From a virus: a stretch of DNA of 64,000 bases. The translations under genes were made by a program, and so were the position numbers. Shown here in pieces: positions 18,649 to 30,605 of the stretch. The stretch lies in the IMG/VR virus record IMGVR_UViG_3300050821_008578, positions 1 to 64,000 of that record. One strand, given 5' to 3'. Under the pieces are notes generated by a model. It made no database searches. It saw only the letters and a list, made by a program, of their open reading frames with translations, and was not told the DNA's origin. How positions within the stretch are numbered: position 1 is the stretch's first letter; every line of letters begins with the position of its first letter.

Positions 18649-20508
18649 ATGTCTAGTACCAATGGGATTGGGTTTATTATAAATCCTCAATCTCTTTCAC
18701 AATCAGCTATTACCAATGACTTACAAACATGGGTACAAAGTCTCCCAGACTACCAATCATGGCAATCTTTTTTTGCTTCAAGTGCTGGTACAATAGTACT
18801 TCAATTAATTGGTGGTATGGGTGCATACATAGCTAATGCTATTATTGTTGGTCGTAGAGAAAATTATTTAGCATATACTCAAAATATGAGTTCTGCTATT
18901 GCTATTGCAGAAACACTAGGATATTCAGTTGATAGAGGTAGAAATCCAGTAGTTAGTTTTACTGTTACTCCTAATGTTACAGGATTATTTAATGCATTTA
19001 CTTCAGTAGGAACTATTTTAAATAGAGATATAATTTTATTAGAAGATACAGTATTTAATAATGGTATTGAAACTACTTTTCAAGCAGTAATTGGACAATT
19101 AGTTCAAGAACAACAAACTATTGCAAATTCAAGTCCTCAATTATTTAGATTTCAAACTGGTCCTGTTTCAGATGATTATCAATTATTATTAAATAGTAAT
19201 GTAGTTCTAACTTCTAATAGATTGATTGATTTAATAAATCAATATTTCGCAGTAATTTCAAATGTATTAGGATCAGTTGATGTAAGTTATTTAAATTTAT
19301 CTTCTTATTCAGTAATTTATGGTACTGGTGATATTTTAACATTAAATTATATATTACTTCAAGACACACAATTTTCTCTAGGTGATATAAATTTTGATTA
19401 TGGTACATTAAATACTTACAGCATAGTATCACTTTACCAAGCACCTGAAACTCTACAAGAGATTCAAGTAAATGCACCATTATTTAGTGAAACTCAATTT
19501 GTTATTCGTGGTCGTGATGATTATATGAAAATCTTCAAACTATTGAATAATACAATAAATAGTACTAGTTATATTGATGTTTCTCCTGCAGTAGTTCAAT
19601 TAACTTATGCTACTAACAACTTTTGTTTATTTACCGATGATGAATTAGCTGAATTTATAACTCAATTATCATCTTACAGAGGAATGGGTATTGAACCACC
19701 ATTGATTAGTCAACCAAGTATAAATTTCTTTAATATGAATATTACTGTAGCATTATCTGGTAGTGGAAATATTACTACTGATGTTGGTAATATATTGGAT
19801 GATTATGAACAAGTATTAGGTACTTCTGGAGCAATAGGAACAATACCCTTTTATATAGATTTTGCAGCTATTGAAAATCAAATTGATGCATTAGATTATG
19901 TTCAAATTAGCAGACCAACTTATAATCCTACTACTTGGATAGCTAATACTATTTATTATTTAGGAAATCATGTCAATGCTTCTCCAGCTAATAATGGGAT
20001 AATTTATCAAGTAGTTGGATTTATTTATGCAACTGGTTCAATTGAACCTAGTTTTGTATTAGGTAATGCCACTTATATTGATGGTCGTATTTTATGGACT
20101 AAAATTGCACCACCAGTACCTACTCCACCAATTCTTACATGGTCTTCTAGTACTGTATTTCCACCGGGATCAGTTATTTTAGCTAGCGGTTTTTACTTTC
20201 AATCTAGTAATTACACACCTTCTGCTTCAGCTATTCCTGCAGTTCCTGCTCAAGGTACTTATGAAGGAGTTACTTATACAGCTAATAATGCTGGAGCTAC
20301 AGGAAATATAATTACTCTTGATTTTGATGGTACTTCTACTAATGCTGTAATATTAAATAATTGGAATGCTGTAAATCCATCTAATCCTGCCTCTATTACT
20401 ACAGGTAGTCCAACAGGAGTTTCAACTGCTGGTACTCTGACTTTATCAGGTGGAGAAGATGAAATAACAAATGAACCAGTTTGGGGTAATTTTCCGCCGG
20501 CATGCTGA
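18649..20508 (+). CDS. Baseplate wedge protein (gp6/J-like) with C-terminal accessory modules
   Basis: RRENYLAY..SSAIAIAETLGY, ETLQEIQVNAP and RGRDDY; WxANTxY-type modules. Confidence 0.8.
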   Translation: MSSTNGIGFIINPQSLSQSAITNDLQTWVQSLPDYQSWQSFFASSAGTIVLQLIGGMGAYIANAIIVGRRENYLAYTQNMSSAIAIAETLGYSVDRGRNPVVSFTVTPNVTGLFNAFTSVGTILNRDIILLEDTVFNNGIETTFQAVIGQLVQEQQTIANSSPQLFRFQTGPVSDDYQLLLNSNVVLTSNRLIDLINQYFAVISNVLGSVDVSYLNLSSYSVIYGTGDILTLNYILLQDTQFSLGDINFDYGTLNTYSIVSLYQAPETLQEIQVNAPLFSETQFVIRGRDDYMKIFKLLNNTINSTSYIDVSPAVVQLTYATNNFCLFTDDELAEFITQLSSYRGMGIEPPLISQPSINFFNMNITVALSGSGNITTDVGNILDDYEQVLGTSGAIGTIPFYIDFAAIENQIDALDYVQISRPTYNPTTWIANTIYYLGNHVNASPANNGIIYQVVGFIYATGSIEPSFVLGNATYIDGRILWTKIAPPVPTPPILTWSSSTVFPPGSVILASGFYFQSSNYTPSASAIPAVPAQGTYEGVTYTANNAGATGNIITLDFDGTSTNAVILNNWNAVNPSNPASITTGSPTGVSTAGTLTLSGGEDEITNEPVWGNFPPAC

Positions 20509-20935: not shown

Positions 20936-21538
20936 ATCGGATTATCATTCAATTCAAATTTTACTAGTATTTTAGCAATTCCACCAAATTTGCAAGATAC
21001 ACCATTGGTGTCTAAAGTAACATCAATGATTGATTATATTGTTACTACTTATGCAACTCAATTTGAAGATATTACATATAAATATTCTAATCCTAATGGT
21101 GCTAGTCCAGATGTAATTATTAATGTAATTAATGAATTTGGATTTGAGTATATTACTAGTGTTATGAGCACAATAACTAATTTTGAATTTAATCAATTAT
21201 TAAGTTTTTTAAGTTTGATTAATTTACTTAAAGGATCTAGACAAGGTTTAGAATTAGTAATGATTCTTCTTGGATTTGATTCTGTTATTACTGAGTGGTG
21301 GCAGGCTACACCTCAAGGCACACCATTCACTTATACATTATTAGTTATTATGAATAATTCAATTGTTGCTAATCCAACATTAACATTAAATAAATTATTA
21401 ATATTTGCTAGAGCATATGTTTATCCTACAATTAGTAATTATACATATCAATTTGATTTCCAATTTGTACAAGCTGCAACTGCATTTGCAGGATTTGGTG
21501 ATCAGACTTATGACTACTCAATAAGTACAAGGATTTAA
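20936..21538 (+). CDS. Baseplate wedge protein (P2 gpI/gp7-like); start uncertain (ATC 20936 or TTG 20990)
   Basis: LKGSRQGLELVM..LG..ITEWW motif. Confidence 0.7.
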   Translation: MGLSFNSNFTSILAIPPNLQDTPLVSKVTSMIDYIVTTYATQFEDITYKYSNPNGASPDVIINVINEFGFEYITSVMSTITNFEFNQLLSFLSLINLLKGSRQGLELVMILLGFDSVITEWWQATPQGTPFTYTLLVIMNNSIVANPTLTLNKLLIFARAYVYPTISNYTYQFDFQFVQAATAFAGFGDQTYDYSISTRI

Positions 21539-24500
21539 ATGGCATTTTCTGGAATTTTGACAAACGGTGGTTTATCAGCAGCTCAACAAGCTGCAATGAA
21601 CAACGGTTTTTATATTTCGCCGACTAAATTTGGTGTTAGTAACTTAGCAGGTACTCTAGATCCTACTCGTACAATGGCCAATTCAGGCCTTTGGTTTACT
21701 GGTCTTATTTCTAGTCGCGTAGTAATAGATCAAAATACTATTGAATTTATTTGTACTATTCCACCAGGTTCAATACCACCTAATACAACTCAGACAATTC
21801 AAGAAGTATATATCTATATACAAAACCCTCTAGGACCATCTCATCCTGATATATTATTTGCTATTGGTGAAACTAGTGCATCTTCTATTATTGTTTATAA
21901 TCCAACTGGTTCAGTAACACTTGATTTACAAATAGCAATTTTAAATACTAATTTAGTATCTGAAATAGTATTTAAATATACTGAAGCAACTGAGATAGCA
22001 GCTCATAATACAGACCCCAATGCACACCCAGATTATTTAAATGCTTTACATATAGCAGCTATTTTTCCAATAGCTGGTTCTGTTCCATTTATTTATGATG
22101 GTCAATCTTATGATCAATTTCCTCAATTTGATGGAACTCCTGCTACATTAATTTATAATGGAATAACTTTTACTGCTCAGTATAATGGGCCAAATGGTGA
22201 TTCAATTACTCTAATTTTTGATGGAGTAATGACAGTTGATCAAGTATGTTCTGCTTGGAATACTTCTAATCCTACAAATCCAGTACTAAATAATAGTATG
22301 ACAGGTACAGAAGTATTACCTGCAAATACTGAAACATTAAGTGGTGGTACTTTAAATGTAGATCAACATGATGCTGTATATTGTGATACAGATGGTATAT
22401 ATAAACAAGCACTTGCTAATGGAACTATTCAAGCTCAAGTTATTGGTATTGCAGATTTTACTTATAATAAAGTAATATCCCAAGGCTTTATAGCTATGAC
22501 AACTGGTATAGCTGCTGGTACTAATCTATACTTATCAGCGACTAATCCTGGTAAAATAACTTCAGAACCTACTGGTGTGTTTCTTGGGTTGCAAGTTTAT
22601 TCAACCCCAGATACTATATTATTAATTAAATCTGGTGGGTCATCTGGTGGTACTAATAGCCAATTTGATGCTGTAGTTACTAATGCACCGGGTACAACAA
22701 ATTATACTACTACCCAATTAGCTATTAATGCTGTTGGTAGTGGTGCTAATATTCTAATTGATAAATTAGATGTATTAGGATCATTATTAACTACTAGTGG
22801 TAAACAAATAAATTTTGTATTTAATGGTGAATCTACTGGTTGGCAAAGATCAGTTGGTTTAGTTGAAATTCAATTAATTACATTTGGTTCTACCCCAGCA
22901 TCAGGAACTTGGAGATTAGAATTTGGTGGTTCAGCAACTACTGATATGGCTTATAATCTTAATGCAGCTGGAGTTCAAGCTGCATTAAATGCTATTCCTG
23001 CTATTTCTTCTGCTGGTGGATTAACTGTTACAGGAAATTATAGTAGTGGTTTTACTGTTACTTGGAATAATCCTGGACCAGAAGCATTATTTACTCAACT
23101 TAATACTGGTACTAATGAAATACAAAATGTTAATTTTAGTTCTGTACCAACTACTGGTGCATTTAGATTACAATTTTTTGATAGTCCTACTTATGAAACA
23201 GATTATCAGAATTATTTAGATAATACTGCACATTTACAAAGTCTTTGTGATGCTGTTCTTGGTGCTGGTAATAGTCTAATTGGTGGAAGTTTTGGTGCTG
23301 GTTATTATCAAATACAATATATTGGTACTAATGCTAAACAACCAATTGTTTTAGTAACAGTTCAAGAAAATACACTTTATAATGGTGCAACACCAGTAAA
23401 TACTACTGTATCAGAAGTTCAAGCAGGTGTCAGACCTGCTAATGATTTATATAATGGTTCAGATGATTTAGTTTCTATTTCTATTACAGAAGTACAACAT
23501 GGTGCTGTTGTAGGTTCATCAACAGCAATACAATTGAGTGCTAATTATTGTACATTTAATGGTTTAGGATATATAACAGGATTTACTACAGGAATTGATT
23601 TTAATGGTACTATAGGTCATCAGATTGCAGTTGCATTTGATCCAACTACAACTTATCCAATAAATCCACGAGGAGCTCTTCCTGATATAGATTATAGTAC
23701 TGATGGTTCAGTTGGTTTTGCTAATTTTGATAACCCAGAATTTAGAGTAACTCCTCATCCAACTAATCCAAATAGAGTTATTGTTAATGGTGCTACAGTT
23801 TCCAATATTGATGGAACAGTATTTTCTCAATTATTAAATAATCAGTTATTAGAATTCCCAACTTATCAAATTGATTTTGTTGCTGGTAATATTTATGCAT
23901 CAGATGGTGTTACAGTAATAAGTAGTTTTACTCCATTTGGATTAACTAATAATACTTATACTTATTGTGGTATTATTATTGAATCTGGTACTATAAATGC
24001 TGATAATACAGTTGTTGGTAATTTAACATTAATAAATGGTGGTAGTGCTATATCTCCTAGTGCTGCTAGTAAACCAACTCTTTCTCCTGGTTATCCAATT
24101 GGGTATGTATTATTAAATGGTACTGGTGGTGGAGTTTCACCATTAGTGCAAACTGATATAACATTATTTAATCCAGGTTCTAATAGTACAACTACTGATA
24201 ATTCTACTGTTTATCCTATATTAGTTCAAGAAACACCTACTGGTATAATCAATGGTACTAATACTAATTTTACTTTAAGTCAAACACCTAAAACTATTAA
24301 TTCAGTATTAGTTTTTGTTGATAATGTTCTTTTATCAAATTCACAATGGTTTTTAACTGGAACTAATCTTGATTTAAACACAGCCCCAGCTACAGGTCAA
24401 AATGTATATGTATATTATATATCTTCAAATATATATTCTAATGTAACAGCATATCAAGAACAACCAGCTACTACTTCTACTCCAGGATTATATACTCTAA

Positions 24501-25204
24501 CTCAAAATCCTATAACTCAAGCTAGTACTTTAGTTTTTGTTGATTATTTACCTGTTCCCTCTACTGATTGGAATTTAATACAATCTAGTGGTAGTTCTAG
24601 TATCCAATTTACACCAGGTAATATACCAGCTACAGGTCAAAATGTATATGTATGGTATTTATTAGATATTGGTGCTAGTACTGCTTTAGGTGGTGGTGTA
24701 TTTAATCTTAAAAATGAAGGATCAGGAGTTCCAATATTTGATAAGCTACAATTTGGGGTAGCTTATATAAGATCTTTGGTTCAAGGTAGTGGGATAGAAA
24801 TAAGTGCTGATTTATCTGGTAATATAACAATTACAGCTACAGGTGGTGGTGGGGGTAGTGGTCCTGTATCAAATGGATCATTTGCTTCTCCTATTGCTAT
24901 TGATGCTTCAACTGGTATTGTTTTAAGTTCTACTGCTTTAGACCAAGTTTGGTGGGTTACTTCTGATGGTGGTTCTCCGGGAGCAGTGCAAGTTACTGCT
25001 AATCCACAAATATCTTCAACTGCTGGTTTATCTATTGGACAAAGATTAACTCTTTTTGGTGTTACTAATGGTTCTGGTGCATATATAAAATTATCTAATG
25101 GAAATGGTATATTATCAAATGGAGATTTCACATTACCAACTATGCAATGTCTTGTATATATTTGGGATGGAACACAATTTAGTTTACAAAGTAATGAAAT
25201 TTAA
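21539..25204 (+). CDS. Large tail fibre/baseplate-attached fibre protein
   Basis: N-terminal ILTNGGL and HNTDPNAH fibre motifs; multiple beta-sandwich modules. Confidence 0.8.
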   Translation: MAFSGILTNGGLSAAQQAAMNNGFYISPTKFGVSNLAGTLDPTRTMANSGLWFTGLISSRVVIDQNTIEFICTIPPGSIPPNTTQTIQEVYIYIQNPLGPSHPDILFAIGETSASSIIVYNPTGSVTLDLQIAILNTNLVSEIVFKYTEATEIAAHNTDPNAHPDYLNALHIAAIFPIAGSVPFIYDGQSYDQFPQFDGTPATLIYNGITFTAQYNGPNGDSITLIFDGVMTVDQVCSAWNTSNPTNPVLNNSMTGTEVLPANTETLSGGTLNVDQHDAVYCDTDGIYKQALANGTIQAQVIGIADFTYNKVISQGFIAMTTGIAAGTNLYLSATNPGKITSEPTGVFLGLQVYSTPDTILLIKSGGSSGGTNSQFDAVVTNAPGTTNYTTTQLAINAVGSGANILIDKLDVLGSLLTTSGKQINFVFNGESTGWQRSVGLVEIQLITFGSTPASGTWRLEFGGSATTDMAYNLNAAGVQAALNAIPAISSAGGLTVTGNYSSGFTVTWNNPGPEALFTQLNTGTNEIQNVNFSSVPTTGAFRLQFFDSPTYETDYQNYLDNTAHLQSLCDAVLGAGNSLIGGSFGAGYYQIQYIGTNAKQPIVLVTVQENTLYNGATPVNTTVSEVQAGVRPANDLYNGSDDLVSISITEVQHGAVVGSSTAIQLSANYCTFNGLGYITGFTTGIDFNGTIGHQIAVAFDPTTTYPINPRGALPDIDYSTDGSVGFANFDNPEFRVTPHPTNPNRVIVNGATVSNIDGTVFSQLLNNQLLEFPTYQIDFVAGNIYASDGVTVISSFTPFGLTNNTYTYCGIIIESGTINADNTVVGNLTLINGGSAISPSAASKPTLSPGYPIGYVLLNGTGGGVSPLVQTDITLFNPGSNSTTTDNSTVYPILVQETPTGIINGTNTNFTLSQTPKTINSVLVFVDNVLLSNSQWFLTGTNLDLNTAPATGQNVYVYYISSNIYSNVTAYQEQPATTSTPGLYTLTQNPITQASTLVFVDYLPVPSTDWNLIQSSGSSSIQFTPGNIPATGQNVYVWYLLDIGASTALGGGVFNLKNEGSGVPIFDKLQFGVAYIRSLVQGSGIEISADLSGNITITATGGGGGSGPVSNGSFASPIAIDASTGIVLSSTALDQVWWVTSDGGSPGAVQVTANPQISSTAGLSIGQRLTLFGVTNGSGAYIKLSNGNGILSNGDFTLPTMQCLVYIWDGTQFSLQSNEI
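24386..24653 (+). repeat. 28-bp direct repeat (24386-24413 and 24626-24653) from a tandem domain duplication; 19-bp partial copy at 26833-26851
   Basis: CCAGCTACAGGTCAAAATGTATATGTAT occurs twice (PATGQNVYV). Confidence 0.85.
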
Positions 25205-25249: not shown

Positions 25250-26398
25250 ATGAAAAATAAACTATTAATTCTGAGTATGTTATTACTTTCAGTAATAACA
25301 TTTGCTGCTACCCCTACAGATAAACAAATTGATACTATTCAAAATTCCACTGGTGGTTCAATATTATCAGTACCAGGTACTGGTACAACATTAGTTACTG
25401 ATACTAATTCAGTAACTCTTACTAATAAAACTATTAGTGGGTCTGCAAATACTCTTAGTAATATTTCTACATCATCTTTAGCATCTGGATTTACTTTGAG
25501 TGTTGGACAAGGTGGTACAGGGGGTATTACTTTAACTCAAAATGGTGTGTTATTCGGTAATGGTACTTCTGCTGTTGGAATCACTGCTGCAGGGTCACAA
25601 TATCAGGTATTTCAAGCTGGTGCATCTGGCACACCAACAATTGGTGCTTTACAATTGAATCAATCTGCTGCTGTAAGTGGGTCACTTGCTGTTGCTAATG
25701 GTGGTACTGGAACAACTACTTTAACAGCAAATAATGTAATATTAGGTAGTGGTTCTTCAGCAGTAACATTTGCAGCACCAACTCAATATTATTCATTGAT
25801 CGGTAATGCTTCTGGAAATCCAAGTTTTCAACAAGTTTCTTTAACTCAAGGCGTTGTAAATACTCTTCCAGTAAGTAATGGTGGTTTGGGTGCAGCTACT
25901 GAAACTCAATATGGATTGCTAATGGGTAATGGTACTAGTGCAATTACTACTGTTGGACCAAATTCTAACAGTGGGTATGTATTAACTTCTACTGGTGCAA
26001 CTTCAGCCCCTACTTTTCAAGCATTACCTTCTTCTTCTCCTTCTGTTAATAATAGTGCTGCTTCACCACAAAGTGTTACTGCTGCAGGTGGTATTACTTT
26101 AAGTACACCTACTTATCTTAATTTAGTATTTATTAAAGGTAGTGCTTCAGGAAATCAAATGGTAACTGCTACTCCTTCTATTACAGCTTGTACTCTTGCA
26201 GGTCAAACATTAACTATTATTTCTGAAGATGCTACACATACTATTACTCTTCAAAATAACGCTGACCTACCTGGTTCTCAATTATTGCTTAATGGTCCTT
26301 GGACTTCAGGAGAAAACAATTCTTCTCCTAACGTTATTAATTTGATATGTGATGGAGCAGCTACACCTGAATGGGTTGAATACTCCAGAAATAATTGA
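25250..26398 (+). CDS. Fibre-like protein with Sec signal peptide
   Basis: MKNKLLILSMLLLSVITFA; TLTNKTISG and VxNGGTG fibre repeats. Confidence 0.75.
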   Translation: MKNKLLILSMLLLSVITFAATPTDKQIDTIQNSTGGSILSVPGTGTTLVTDTNSVTLTNKTISGSANTLSNISTSSLASGFTLSVGQGGTGGITLTQNGVLFGNGTSAVGITAAGSQYQVFQAGASGTPTIGALQLNQSAAVSGSLAVANGGTGTTTLTANNVILGSGSSAVTFAAPTQYYSLIGNASGNPSFQQVSLTQGVVNTLPVSNGGLGAATETQYGLLMGNGTSAITTVGPNSNSGYVLTSTGATSAPTFQALPSSSPSVNNSAASPQSVTAAGGITLSTPTYLNLVFIKGSASGNQMVTATPSITACTLAGQTLTIISEDATHTITLQNNADLPGSQLLLNGPWTSGENNSSPNVINLICDGAATPEWVEYSRNN

Positions 26399-26449
26399 TA
26401 TTATATCTAATTACCTTATCACTTCATAAGATAATTTAAGGAAAAATTA

Positions 26450-26881
26450 ATGAAATTATTTCTATTAATTATATTTTGGTCAGCATTAGCTTACTCTACT
26501 ACCCCTGTATCAAAAACAATTGATAATCTTAAAACTACAGGTGGTAGTACCCTAGCTTTACCATCTACAGGTACTAATTTAGCCACTGATACTAATACTC
26601 TTACTTTTACGGGTAAGACTATCAGTGGTTCTAATAATACATTAAGTCAATTACCTGTTGAATCTCAAATGCAACAGGATATATTTTATGGTAATAGTAC
26701 AACAACTTCATTTACATTATCGTTTTCCCAAGTATCAGTATCTGGGTTATTATGTTATTTAGATGGTATGGCTTTAGTTCAAGGATCAAGTAATGATTAT
26801 ACTGCATCTGGTACAACATTATCACTAAATGTAGCCCCAGCTACAGGTCAACGTATTTTATGTATTTATTCAAAATATTAA
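26450..26881 (+). CDS. Short fibre-like protein with Sec signal peptide
   Basis: MKLFLLIIFWSALAYS; N-domain paralogous to 25250, C-domain paralogous to the PATGQ repeat of 21539. Confidence 0.75.
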   Translation: MKLFLLIIFWSALAYSTTPVSKTIDNLKTTGGSTLALPSTGTNLATDTNTLTFTGKTISGSNNTLSQLPVESQMQQDIFYGNSTTTSFTLSFSQVSVSGLLCYLDGMALVQGSSNDYTASGTTLSLNVAPATGQRILCIYSKY

Positions 26882-26900
26882 GGAGTTAGTTATAATTAGT

Positions 26901-27635
26901 ATGAGTAAAAATAAACATACTTGTCTAATATGTAAACAAGTAATAAATAATAGTTGGTTAATAAGACATGTAAAGAAATATCATAATATTTCTGAACAAA
27001 AATATTATGATTTAGTATTTCCTAATGAAATAAACAAAAATTGTAAATTTTGTAATAAAAAATCTAATTTATTTATTAGTTATAAACTTGGGTATAAATC
27101 ATTTTGTAATACAATTTGTTTAGGTAAAAATTTTAATAAAAGAACCCATGAATTATATCCTGATCTTATGATAAAAATTGGTAAAAAATTAGGTTATGGT
27201 TTAGGAAATGATCCTAAAAGAATAAAAATGTTACATGATAGAAATTTAGAATTACATCCTAATCATCTTAGTGATATGGGCAAAATTGGTATATTAAAAA
27301 GTTGGAATAATCCTAATTTTGGTTATACTAAAAATAAATCCTGTTATTATAAAGAAATAAGAATGAGATCATCATGGGAAAAGAAATTTGCAGAATTATG
27401 TGACGAAAATAATATCAAATTTGAATACGAACCGAAATGGTTCAAATTGTGGACTGGTAGAAGATATTTACCTGATTTCTATTTACCAGAAAAAGATTTA
27501 TGGATTGAAATAAGACCTAAATGCTATCAAAATCAAGAACTACACATGCGTGGAGTAGAACTTGGTATTAATTTTAAAGTATTAGATAAAAAACAGTTTG
27601 GTGACTTTTTCAAAGAAAAAGAAGGTGTGAAATGA
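26901..27635 (+). mobile_element. Free-standing PD-(D/E)XK-type putative homing endonuclease with Zn fingers
   Basis: RSSWEKKFA..EYEPKWF..YLPDFYLPE..WIEI; C2H2 and CxxC N-terminus; Lys-rich composition interrupting the fibre cluster. Confidence 0.7.
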
Positions 27636-28936
27636 ATAAGTTATTAACATTAATATTAATTCCATTATTTTTTACTAATAATGCATTTTCAAAAATTCAG
27701 AACGAGGATGTGAAATCTATTTCTGATATAGAATCTTCAGTACTTAGTACTACAGGTAATGTATCTAGTTCTTCAACTCCTACTTGTATTACTTCTCTTA
27801 GTTCTACTGCAAATGTAGCTGCAGGCCAATTTGTGTATGACACTACACATTCTTATATACCAGCTAGTACTACAGTTTTAGGTATTGGGACTGGGCCTTG
27901 TAGTGCTGGTCAAGTTCAGATGAGTGCTAGTTCTACTGGAACTGCCACTGGTGATACAATTACTTTTGGTGGACAACAATCACAATCAATTAATACATCA
28001 AAAATATATGATGTTACTTATACAGGTCAATTATCTACATTAATTTCAAATTCTGGTCTTGGTGCATTAGCAACAGCTGCTAGTGGTTCAGCAATGACTT
28101 CTAATGGATCTGGTACAGCAACATGGCAACCAGTTTTATCAAATCCTATGACTGCTGGTGGTCAAATGATTGGTGGGGGGACATCAGGGGTTGCAACAAC
28201 AATTGCTGCTGGTACTAGTGGTCAAGTAATAATGAGTAATGGATCATCAGTATCTTCTTTTAATACAGTACCTGGTAATTCAACTATTTTAAAATTTCCA
28301 GCAATCACTACTTATATTACTAGTGGAGGAGCATCAGGTACATATACTGTACCAACTAGCCCCAGCCCACTTTATATTATTGTTGAAATGGTTGGTCCTG
28401 GTTCTGGTGGGTCGGGGAGTGGTGCATCAGGGACAGCAAGTCAAGCAGGTAATCAATCAACTATTTTTGGAATAAATCATAGTAATTTACTTGTAGCTAC
28501 TAGTGGTGCAGCTACAGCAAATGAATTTAATTCAGGTGCTGGTGGTACTACAACTGTAAATTCTCCAGCTGTTCAAATATCAGTTTCTGTTGGAGGACAA
28601 GGATCAGCAGGAACAGATTCTTCTGGAACACCACAAACTCTTGGTGGTGCTGGTGGAGCAACACCATTTGGTGCTGGTGGGGGTGGTGGTACAGGGTTAA
28701 CTGGGGCTTTAACAGGTGTGGCTAATTCAGGTGCTGGTGGAGGTGGAGCCGGTGCTGCTGGGCCATCTGGTGCTGGTGGTTCAGGTGGAGGGTATTTAAA
28801 AGCTATGATTACTCAAACAAATTTACAAACAACATATACATGGCAATTAGGAAGTGGTGGGGCAGGTGGTACAGGTACACTAACTGGTGGTAGTGGATCT
28901 GATGGTAAAATTATTATAACTGCTTATTATCAATAA
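27632..28936 (+). CDS. Gly-rich fibre-like protein with Sec signal peptide
   Basis: MNKLLTLILIPLFFTNNAFS; C-terminal glycine-rich domain (VEMVGPGSGG...GSDGKIIITAY). Confidence 0.75.
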   Translation: MNKLLTLILIPLFFTNNAFSKIQNEDVKSISDIESSVLSTTGNVSSSSTPTCITSLSSTANVAAGQFVYDTTHSYIPASTTVLGIGTGPCSAGQVQMSASSTGTATGDTITFGGQQSQSINTSKIYDVTYTGQLSTLISNSGLGALATAASGSAMTSNGSGTATWQPVLSNPMTAGGQMIGGGTSGVATTIAAGTSGQVIMSNGSSVSSFNTVPGNSTILKFPAITTYITSGGASGTYTVPTSPSPLYIIVEMVGPGSGGSGSGASGTASQAGNQSTIFGINHSNLLVATSGAATANEFNSGAGGTTTVNSPAVQISVSVGGQGSAGTDSSGTPQTLGGAGGATPFGAGGGGGTGLTGALTGVANSGAGGGGAGAAGPSGAGGSGGGYLKAMITQTNLQTTYTWQLGSGGAGGTGTLTGGSGSDGKIIITAYYQ

Positions 28937-28966
28937 ATAATAATTAAAAATATCCTAGGAGGGTAT

Positions 28967-29527
28967 ATGAAAAAGTTAGTTAATTTTATGATTGCATCAA
29001 TGATTTTATTTAGTCCTATTTTACTACTTGCACAAACACCTGCACCCACAGTTCCACCTGTAGTAAATCAAGTTCAAACTACAGTAGGTGGTGCAACTGT
29101 CACTGCTGATGCATTTTTTGCTAATATTGCTGCTGCTATGCCTGGATTTTCTGCATTAAATACTTGGTTTAAAATTGCTCTAGTTCTACTTCTTTTAGAT
29201 TGTTCATTAAAAGTATCTTTTTTAACTCCATTATGGAATAAACTTGGTACTAAATTTGATAGCTTGGCTCCAGTAGTATTTTCACTGTTGGCAGGTTTAT
29301 GTCTGATGGCAGGAACAAATGGTCTTTCATTGAAAGGCGTTCTATCATATCTTTCAGTAGGTGTTGGTGCATCAGGTTTAGCAGCAATTATAACTGATTT
29401 AAGTGGTTCTATTAAAAATCCAACTGTTTTATCATTTTTAAATTTCCTTAAAGGAATTCTTGGTGGTAATACACCTACCCCACCTGTACCTCCAACTCCT
29501 CCTACTACACCACCTGCAGCTAGCTAA
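28967..29527 (+). CDS. Multi-pass membrane protein (holin-like) with signal-like N-terminus and Pro-rich tail
   Basis: About 3 hydrophobic segments; GGAGG SD; lies after the fibres. Confidence 0.5.
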   Translation: MKKLVNFMIASMILFSPILLLAQTPAPTVPPVVNQVQTTVGGATVTADAFFANIAAAMPGFSALNTWFKIALVLLLLDCSLKVSFLTPLWNKLGTKFDSLAPVVFSLLAGLCLMAGTNGLSLKGVLSYLSVGVGASGLAAIITDLSGSIKNPTVLSFLNFLKGILGGNTPTPPVPPTPPTTPPAAS

Positions 29528-29970
29528 TGTTCATAATAGCTATTGCTACTAAATCAAGCATTAAATTAAGGAGTTCATCAGATCCTGGTGTAACCCCAAT
29601 TCCAATTATTGATCCTACTACTAATGTAATTAATAATATAATTCAAAAATCCATATTTAATGTTGCAATTAATGCTATTTATACTAGTATGTGTATTGCA
29701 TCTCCATGGTTAAAATATCCAATTATCAATTCTATATTTAAATATATATTAGGTTATTTTGGAAATTATCTATATATATTTTTAGCTCAAGATGCTGTAA
29801 TAACTACTATTAATGTTCAAACAGAACAACAACTAGCTGCATATAGTGCAGCTTCATCTGAATTAGCTGTAGCAATTCAAAGTGGTGGTGATACTACTAT
29901 TGCTCAGACTAAATTTCAACAAGCTCTTACTGGAATAGTACAATTTGATGGAATTACCAATATAAAATAG
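29527..29970 (+). CDS. Hypothetical, possibly membrane-associated lysis protein
   Basis: Coupled ORF with amphipathic segment. Confidence 0.45.
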   Translation: MFIIAIATKSSIKLRSSSDPGVTPIPIIDPTTNVINNIIQKSIFNVAINAIYTSMCIASPWLKYPIINSIFKYILGYFGNYLYIFLAQDAVITTINVQTEQQLAAYSAASSELAVAIQSGGDTTIAQTKFQQALTGIVQFDGITNIK

Positions 29971-29982
29971 TTTAGGATAAAA

Positions 29983-30324
29983 ATGAAATTAATGTTATTA
30001 ACTTCTATTCTATTTTTAAGTGGTTGTAATACTATTCAGTATCGTGATTCTGTATGGTGTTCTTCTCCAGACCTTTCTAAAGGTGGAATTTGTGTCCATT
30101 TTCTCACTACAGCAACTGAGAATATGGATTCTAATCAATATATTACATGGTTAGTTGGTTCAGGAGATAAAGAAGGACCAAAGATTTGTACTACTGCATC
30201 TACTTTGGCTGATTGGAAGGGTAATTTAGAAAAAGAATGTTCTGAACATTCTAATTGTAATTTTAATTCTAAAATAATTGATGCTATTGATTCAACATTG
30301 ACATTAACTAATCAAAGTAAATAA
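29983..30324 (+). CDS. Cys-rich lipoprotein (o-spanin-like)
   Basis: Lipobox LSGC after the signal peptide. Confidence 0.6.
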   Translation: MKLMLLTSILFLSGCNTIQYRDSVWCSSPDLSKGGICVHFLTTATENMDSNQYITWLVGSGDKEGPKICTTASTLADWKGNLEKECSEHSNCNFNSKIIDAIDSTLTLTNQSK

Positions 30325-30326
30325 AG

Positions 30327-30605
30327 GTGTTTCTTATGCCAGAAATAGTAACTGAATTACCCGGAGAGGCTATGATAATTGGGATTGCTATTGTAATTAT
30401 ATTGATGTTACTTGCAATGAATATCTTTTTTATTCGAAGATTGGTAACAAAATTAGAAGATGTCCCATTACTATCTCAAAGAGTAGGAGCTATGGAAACT
30501 ACTATTAGGAATTTAACTAATGATTTAAAAGATATAGGTGATTTAAGAGAAAAAGTAGCAGTTTTGAATTATGCTTTAGAAGAACTTAAAAAGAAGAAAG
30601 ATTAA
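30327..30605 (+). CDS. Single-TM coiled-coil protein (holin/i-spanin-like)
   Basis: One TM helix plus coiled coil and basic C-terminus; start may be ATG 30372 (GGAG SD). Confidence 0.5.
   Translation: MFLMPEIVTELPGEAMIIGIAIVIILMLLAMNIFFIRRLVTKLEDVPLLSQRVGAMETTIRNLTNDLKDIGDLREKVAVLNYALEELKKKKD

Follow-up and report, generated by a model that had tools for sequence, protein, structure and literature searches.

Can a tailed phage make part of its host-recognition apparatus outside the cytoplasm? The question is raised by three genes, here named SP1, SP2 and SP3, that follow the main tail fibre gene in the IMG/VR virus record IMGVR_UViG_3300050821_008578. The window, by which we mean the whole stretch of DNA analysed, comprises the first 64 kb of this 78-kb record, for which a completeness of 42% is estimated. 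The SP proteins open with leaders of the Sec type and carry paired cysteines, and the fibre upstream of them is leaderless. Together with that fibre, SP1–SP3 appear to form a conserved four-gene host-recognition module, part of which is very likely to be produced outside the cytoplasm, the compartment in which tailed phages are built. The four genes have the following layout.

21539..25204, + strand: leaderless main tail fibre, 1221 residues, downstream of a P2 gpI-like gene; two immunoglobulin-like (Ig-like) repeats (residues ~895–1040) and a C-terminal beta-sandwich tip (residues ~1105–1221) with Gly/Trp (G/W) where SP1 has Cys/Cys (C/C).
25250..26398, + strand: SP1, 382 residues; 19-residue leader (25250–25306), SP2-like mature N-terminal segment, GGTG-type fibre repeats and beta-sandwich tip (26033–26395).
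26189–26191 and 26348–26350, + strand: the SP1 tip cysteines C314 and C367, respectively.
26450..26881, + strand: SP2, 143 residues; 16-residue leader (26450–26497), SP1-like N-terminal segment and an Ig-like domain homologous to fibre residues 905–960, with C102 and C138.
27632..28936, + strand: SP3, 434 residues; 20-residue leader (27632–27691), conserved N-domain of ~130 residues (small beta-barrel) with C52 and C90, and a glycine-rich C-terminal half.

Leaders and cysteine pairs

The N-terminus of SP1 is MKNKLLILSMLLLSVITFA, past which the predicted cut would expose ATPTDK; that of SP2 is MKLFLLIIFWSALAYS, followed by TTPVSK, and that of SP3 is MNKLLTLILIPLFFTNNAFS, followed by KIQNED. Read from the sequence with a crude rule of our own, all three leaders (16–20 residues) have the tripartite anatomy of Sec/signal peptidase I substrates: a positively charged n-region, an uncharged h-region of 11–14 residues and small residues at positions −3 and −1, with the cut falling between TFA and A in SP1, AYS and T in SP2, and AFS and K in SP3. 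None of the three proteins contains a cysteine at +1 of the cut, a lipobox, a membrane anchor or an outer-membrane targeting feature. When ~90 open reading frames (ORFs) of the window were scored, leader-like N-termini were confined to the block 25250–30324, apart from two obvious false positives elsewhere, one of which is a Rossmann GxGxxG motif; AT-richness is therefore no explanation for them.

A Shine–Dalgarno sequence precedes the ATG of each leader (GGAG in SP1, AGGA in SP2 and AAGGTG in SP3). The sole downstream ATG in SP1 sits within the hydrophobic core and has no ribosome-binding site, SP2 has no in-frame start ahead of codon 74, and the sole alternative in SP3 is a GTG at codon 27, within the conserved mature N-terminus. 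As judged from the reading frames, translation from a start downstream of the leader is excluded, with no usable in-frame start up to the conserved mature N-terminus in any of the three.

The leaders are a property of the protein families. A search of 5.8 billion proteins with SP1 yielded 272 relatives, and the 120 listed were analysed for leaders and cysteines. A strict leader rule was passed by 109 of the 120; the other 11 comprise four with an evident leader, five fragments and two leaderless matches. These last two are unrelated fibres with only the shaft in common, so that ~113 of 115 full-length homologues carry leaders. All SP2 relatives with an N-terminus carry them as well, as do all SP3 N-domain orthologues seen. 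Leaders of the SP1 family vary in sequence and keep their features, and the residues directly past the predicted cut are highly conserved, the pattern that marks a signal peptide which is cleaved and kept by selection. An earlier note on this DNA had read the three ORFs as opening with Sec signal peptides, and the leader anatomy, the Shine–Dalgarno sequences and the conservation among homologues all agree with that reading.

The same note had counted exactly two cysteines in each protein, which the ORFs confirm: C314/C367 in SP1, C102/C138 in SP2 and C52/C90 in SP3. Each of the three exported proteins thus has its own pair in a different domain, and the homologous cytoplasmic domains have none. 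In the SP1 family alignment, the two tip columns contain C/C in 86 sequences, G/W in 29 and Ala/Trp in one; a lone cysteine is seen twice, once in a truncated protein and once where the alignment is doubtful. Of 11 SP2 sequences, 4 have C/C and the other 7 have Val or Leu followed by Ala, with no mixed state, and C52 and C90 of SP3 are both present in 14/14 orthologues covering the region. Cysteine counts in the mature part are even in 115 of the 120 listed SP1 homologues and odd in 5; for leader-bearing ORFs of at least 240 residues in related loci, which are IMG/VR contigs, the figures are 33 even and 9 odd.

The pairing of cysteines with leaders was examined in a broader set. A tip profile from alignment A2, which contains the window phage and the related loci L003 and L004, was run on 1.84 billion representatives and gave 1,887 clusters, the best 149 of which were analysed. 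Among these, C/C was found in 14 leader-bearing proteins and in one 116-residue fragment without an N-terminus, and G/W in 37 leader-bearing and 71 leaderless proteins (Fisher p ~2e-6 for the association of C/C with a leader). The co-occurrence of leader and cysteine pair that the earlier note had proposed to survey in homologues is therefore found, C/C being restricted to leader-bearing lineages within this set. The window phage, L003 and L004 each combine a G/W tip on the leaderless fibre with a C/C tip on SP1; some SP1 tips in other related loci carry G/W. Covarying pairs, even counts and confinement to exported lineages are the marks of extracytoplasmic disulfide proteins.

Comparative evidence therefore lends strong support to the proposal, also made in the earlier note, that these subunits are exported and disulfide-bonded: there are leaders in more than 110 homologues, the cysteine pairs covary and cysteine counts are even. 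Export of SP1–SP3 and their oxidation in the periplasm, these two steps alone, appear highly likely to us. One structural disulfide per protein would form in the periplasm, and the fold is probably trimeric.

Common domains, tips and the module across phages

The first 60 residues of SP1 and SP2 are related (BLASTP E=1e-17), in keeping with the common N-terminal domain noticed earlier. This similarity is higher within than between phages (permutation p ~5e-5); we do not take it as a sign of coevolution, as it reflects mostly two sequence types that track phage relatedness. The C-terminal domain of SP2 matches the Ig-like repeat of the fibre at residues 905–960 (E=9e-9). The match between the SP1 and fibre tips is weak by BLASTP (E=0.025) and clear in alignment A2 and by profile search, and SP3 has no similarity to the fibre. 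The fibre residues aligned to the cysteines are V/V(Y) for SP2 and G/W for SP1. Two of the three ORFs thus contain fibre domains in which the cysteines are replaced, as had been claimed, but the pairing of ITAC with ISST given for the SP1 tip is off by one residue: the cysteine aligns with the glycine of STAG in the fibre.

In an AlphaFold model of SP1, the tip (residues 270–382) is confident, with a predicted local distance difference test score (pLDDT) above 90. Its fold is like those of beta-sandwich domains in phage fibres and tailspikes, with matches to 6o38_A, a ‘chaperone-substrate complex’ (Z 8.9), the C-domain of an Acinetobacter phage tailspike (Z 8.5) and CBA120 TSP4 (Z 6.2); Foldseek with the same model returned weak matches only. 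The fibre tip has a weak match to Pfam Phage_depo_C. For SP3, the model is confident for residues 35–115 only, and the best Z score (7.3) is in the range of common arrangements and is not diagnostic. As modelled, the SP3 N-domain appears to be a small beta-barrel, a type of domain that phage tail proteins often carry as an insertion. SP3 orthologues match Pfam Gly_rich_2 in the glycine-rich C-terminal half, and other modules replace this half in relatives. SP1–SP3 have no informative match in Pfam, PHROGs, NCBIfam or PADLOC, with no defence or exclusion family among the PADLOC and NCBIfam models matched, and no real match among solved structures searched by sequence. The nearest protein-atlas clusters are all viral. 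A domain or fold in common with fibres, together with the position in a tail module, places the SP proteins among candidate fibres or receptor-binding proteins.

In a tree of tip domains, the tips of leaderless fibres and those of SP1 are separated by a branch with 100/99 support. Fibre and SP1 tips are 33% identical within the same phage and 34% identical across phages, and in comparisons across phages the SP1 tips (49% identical) are better conserved than the fibre tips (39%). SP1 is therefore not a copy of its own phage's tip. Conservation of the SP1 tips extends over phages with G+C contents (GC) of 30–65%, which suggests a conserved partner. The window SP1 tip and its counterpart in a GC 60% phage (L008:7001-7960) are 74% identical, and the closest whole-phage relative of the window phage (L012:7377-8321, GC 39%) has a cysteine-free SP1 of the G/W type; SP1 seems to have moved between phages. 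SP2 is likewise conserved; within the module, it is the C-terminal half of SP3 that varies and is exchanged.

About 20 contigs have the gene order J-like, I-like, leaderless fibre with a G/W tip, SP1, SP2, SP3-like, and membrane and lipoprotein lysis genes. The contigs with the module, among them L012, a close relative of the window phage, span GC 37–65% and belong to two backbones, P2/Mu-like genomes of ~45–50 kb and large genomes of 150–180 kb. Large genomes with a T4-like capsid that carry the module are the window record and contigs of 157–175 kb; this distribution points to transfer between phage types. The module genes are separated by short gaps and lie inside the tail operon directly past the fibre, and all SP contexts seen are phage tail modules. 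They represent an investment of 0.9–3.4 kb each, up to ~9% of a 45–50 kb genome. In four contigs (L014–L017), SP2 and SP3 are replaced by other, larger leader-bearing fibre proteins of up to 1192 residues. A different layout is found in L005 (L005:7665-10715, + strand, GC 56%), which encodes a leader-bearing, tailspike-sized protein of 1016 residues whose GGTG shaft repeats are those also found in SP1; receptor-binding proteins with leaders therefore occur outside the module as well.

Possible sites of action

What the exported proteins do is less certain than their export. The reading we prefer, in line with the docking at or after lysis proposed in the earlier note, is that they form a distal fibre set that joins the particle at lysis, a statement that, attachment to the virion included, we hold with a probability of roughly 0.4. 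The host Sec system would export SP1, SP2 and SP3, signal peptidase I would remove the leaders, and the proteins would fold in the periplasm with one disulfide each. SP1 and SP2 would serve as conserved connector segments with one type of N-terminal docking peptide, and SP3 would carry the variable receptor-binding end. Particles assembled in the cytoplasm would then receive the set once holin lesions have joined this compartment to the periplasm, either ahead of outer-membrane failure or shortly after it. In lysis of the lambda type, holin lesions are large enough for endolysin passage, and they could let periplasmic fibres meet particles ahead of the spanin step.

Several features point towards a virion role. 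The genes follow the fibre in a fixed order and are co-inherited in the tail operon. The SP1 tip has a fold like those of virion receptor-binding proteins, with viral clusters as its nearest relatives, and the conserved N-domain and exchangeable C-terminal modules of SP3 have the layout of a receptor-binding protein. An N-terminal segment common to SP1 and SP2 is what one would expect if both fitted into paralogous sockets, and the tips of the fibre and of SP1 are themselves paralogous. The investment is large, compared with the small size of known exclusion proteins. A bolder version divides assembly between two compartments: the particle and its proximal fibre would arise in the cytoplasm, a jointed distal fibre would undergo export, oxidation and pre-assembly in the periplasm, and lysis would be the last step of morphogenesis. 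In its full form, this version seems to us unlikely.

Other considerations weigh against a place in the particle. The presence of SP1–SP3 in particles is argued from genes and predicted folds, and the leader calls come from our own rule. The link between cysteine pair and leader reflects few independent evolutionary events, because the C/C state lies mainly within one SP1 sub-lineage of the tip tree. Twenty-nine SP1 homologues have a leader and no cysteine pair, so that oxidation is not the sole reason for export, and disulfides in fibres can also form after release. A paper on cyanophage Pam3 makes frequent mention of disulfides (PMC9942802). The leaderless fibre has a fast-evolving tip of its own, and the particle may therefore be complete without SP1–SP3. 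To our knowledge, tailed-phage assembly takes place in the cytoplasm, and exported tail fibres are not known from published work; our literature search found no leader-bearing tail fibres in tailed phages, and the relevant mentions in a paper on phiCbK concern lysis proteins only.

The strongest rival is that SP1–SP3 are exported and never enter the particle, acting instead bound to the envelope or displayed on the surface, for example in superinfection exclusion, in modifying or masking the surface, in aiding release or in cell adhesion. We consider this a serious contender, if a somewhat unlikely one. The earlier note had listed a host-surface adhesin among its alternatives, a role that SP1–SP3 may have. 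It accommodates the well-supported export and the adjoining membrane and lysis genes, and SP1 tips conserved over very different phages could bind a universal envelope element. It also has precedents in T5 Llp, Cor of T1 and phi80, and lambda Lom and Bor, which are exported to the envelope and encoded beside fibre or receptor-binding genes. Those proteins resemble SP1–SP3 in gene position and export, but all are small, belong to the lipoproteins or outer-membrane proteins and lack fibre domains, whereas SP1–SP3 are modular fibres of 143–434 residues without a lipobox, membrane anchor or outer-membrane targeting; the lipoprotein of this phage is a separate 113-residue product of a gene at 29983. 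Known exclusion proteins are small, whereas long modular fibres here take up to ~9% of a 45–50 kb genome, and PADLOC and NCBIfam offer no match. Strict co-inheritance and order with the fibre in a late tail operon fit structure better than host manipulation.

The closest layout on the envelope side is that of the mosaic adhesive trimer (MAT) fibres of Bdellovibrio bacteriovorus, which sit on the producer's own surface (Caulton et al. 2024, PMC10769870). MAT fibres have a leader, a conserved N-terminal domain of ~130 residues past it, a fibre and disulfide-bearing tips, with an S74 chaperone-protease C-terminus in 13 of 21 MATs (PMC10769870). In MATs and SP proteins alike, a leader is followed by a conserved beta-rich N-domain, a shaft like that of phage fibres and C-terminal tips that can be exchanged and in some cases carry a disulfide; both are made outside the cytoplasm, very probably so in the case of the SP proteins. 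SP3 also has a conserved N-domain of ~130 residues, which resembles the MAT one in size and position. MATs differ in being chromosomal genes of a predatory bacterium, whereas the SP genes lie in phage tail operons, and by Pfam SP1–SP3 lack the S74 domain. The solved MAT structures are C-terminal fragments (PMC10769870), and no MAT structure came up when solved chains were searched with a profile of the SP1 family. Sec leaders have also been reported for Porphyromonas phage genes, read as using host secretion and as envelope modifiers (Matrishin et al. 2023, PMC10367356). That study differs from the present case in naming no tail fibre or tail part, and it does not assign functions.

The remaining rivals fare worse on the tip and leader evidence. 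T5 Llp is thought to saturate receptors so that progeny are not lost, and SP1–SP3 could likewise be soluble decoys that copy the phage's own receptor-binding tip and saturate receptors on debris or on the infected cell. The fibre domains in SP1 and SP2 and late production with structural genes would suit such a role. However, the SP1 and fibre tips are two old lineages (the 100/99 branch), they are no more alike in the same phage (33%) than across phages (34%), and SP1 tips are the more conserved (49% against 39% for fibre tips), which argues that SP1 does not track its own phage's specificity. The window SP1 tip has 74% identity to the tip from a GC 60% phage, and a decoy acting on debris needs no export. 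Decoys, which the earlier note had offered as an alternative, are thus disfavoured, and we regard them as distinctly improbable. Also improbable, to a similar degree, is a leader that acts as a cleavable or uncleaved membrane tether, keeping the subunits on the inner membrane for assembly close to baseplates located there, and leaving the cysteines to be oxidised only after release. The hydrophobic N-termini are real, but the small −3/−1 residues and the post-cut sequence conserved family-wide are typical of cleaved Sec leaders; a Sec leader puts the mature part on the periplasmic side anyway, and the cysteine pair is confined to leader-bearing lineages. That the leaders are chance hydrophobic N-termini or wrong starts, and the proteins ordinary cytoplasmic fibres, is already very unlikely. 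A GC of ~30% does favour Lys, Ile, Leu and Phe, but leaders recur in homologues from contigs of GC 37–65%, they are present in only one gene block of the window, and their ATGs have Shine–Dalgarno sequences and no alternative start.

For the distal-fibre reading, the nearest parallels are T4 and the filamentous phages. The T4 long-tail-fibre genes gp34, gp35, gp36 and gp37 encode proteins of 1289, 372, 221 and 1026 residues, the distal half-fibre being built separately and joined late, without leaders and in the cytoplasm. The module likewise has a large proximal fibre gene, two small putative connectors and a putative distal, variable receptor-binding gene, with sizes here of 1221, 382, 143 and 434–765 residues. 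The parallel is one of layout only, since the T4 proteins lack leaders and assemble in the cytoplasm; SP1–SP3 have no sequence or profile match to gp35–gp37 in Pfam or PHROG searches, apart from a weak hit to phrog_863 (‘tail fiber assembly’) on the glycine-rich end of SP3 (E=0.006). The Ff adhesin g3p is a virion receptor-binding protein with a Sec leader that is oxidised in the periplasm before it joins the particle. Its C-terminal helix anchors it in the inner membrane, and it is added during extrusion of a non-lytic, non-tailed phage. The likeness lies in a leader-bearing, periplasmically oxidised receptor-binding protein, its place in the virion being established for g3p and proposed for the SP proteins; SP1–SP3 differ in lacking a C-terminal anchor, and the window phage is tailed and lytic in layout.

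If SP1–SP3 are virion parts, they would be a widespread exception to the rule of wholly cytoplasmic tailed-phage assembly. In many uncultured phages, the proteins that set host range would then be stabilised by disulfides and dependent on host Sec and Dsb, which would affect host prediction, as the host must export and oxidise, and also attempts to produce receptor-binding proteins in heterologous systems. Viral genes labelled ‘secreted’ in metagenomes, for which an auxiliary or host-modifying role is usually assumed, would have to be reread. If assembly does proceed in two compartments, the ~1,900 tip clusters, with ~40% of the best 149 leader-bearing, would imply a common, unrecognised assembly route in uncultured soil and freshwater phages. 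If SP1–SP3 are not virion parts, they would be exported, fibre-like effectors that act on the infected-cell envelope, a class that is large, conserved and so far undescribed. Either way, they provide a natural experiment in which a single phage has both a cytoplasmic (G/W) and an exported (C/C) paralogue of one beta-sandwich tip.

Neighbouring genes and source phage

Two further elements flank or interrupt the SP genes.

26901..27635, + strand: endonuclease-like gene, 244 residues, probably a homing endonuclease, between SP2 and SP3.
28967..30605, + strand: envelope/lysis block adjoining SP3, with homologues in L009, L010, L011 and L028.

The endonuclease-like protein is rich in cysteines and matches PHROG families of Holliday junction resolvases and homing endonucleases (best E=4e-13); the stop of its gene overlaps the SP3 start (ATGA). 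The gene is missing from the SP2–SP3 junction in all related loci, which have only 10–20 nucleotides there, and it therefore looks like a mobile insertion outside the module proper. No form without it was seen in the short, low-depth pieces assembled from soil metagenome runs. The envelope block encodes a 186-residue leader protein with proline-rich ends and three membrane segments, a 147-residue membrane protein with two segments, the 113-residue lipoprotein (LSGC lipobox, six cysteines) and a 92-residue membrane-anchored coiled-coil protein that is i-spanin-like; no endolysin was recognisable within this block. A promoter scan performed no better than shuffled expectation, and no convincing terminator was found between the fibre and SP1.

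DNA of the window (GC ~30%) was found in contigs from soil metagenomes, the best holder covering 0.39 of the sampled words, and no RNA runs were among the listed sequencing runs that hold it. SP1, an SP1 orthologue and the fibre tip have no match in cultured phages, and two uncultured ‘Caudoviricetes sp.’ records gave short matches only. A search for the SP family in 185,579 species genomes gave zero hits in a first scan and five metagenome-assembled contigs with mixed labels, which point to no one host, in a second; judged by sequence similarity, the family appears essentially absent from these genomes. The major capsid protein is distantly T4-like and is 44% identical to those of Rhizobium phages of ~200 kb. 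The baseplate end is simple, with a J-like gene followed by the P2 gpI-like gene (Pfam Tail_P2_I, 20990–21538) and then the 1221-residue leaderless fibre. A module of ~70–90 residues that occurs twice in this fibre (residues ~184–270 and ~444–537) is also present in the J-like protein (18649–20508, residues ~530–606) and in the J-like proteins of the relatives L008, L010, L013 and L027, indicating that baseplate and fibre have repeat domains in common.

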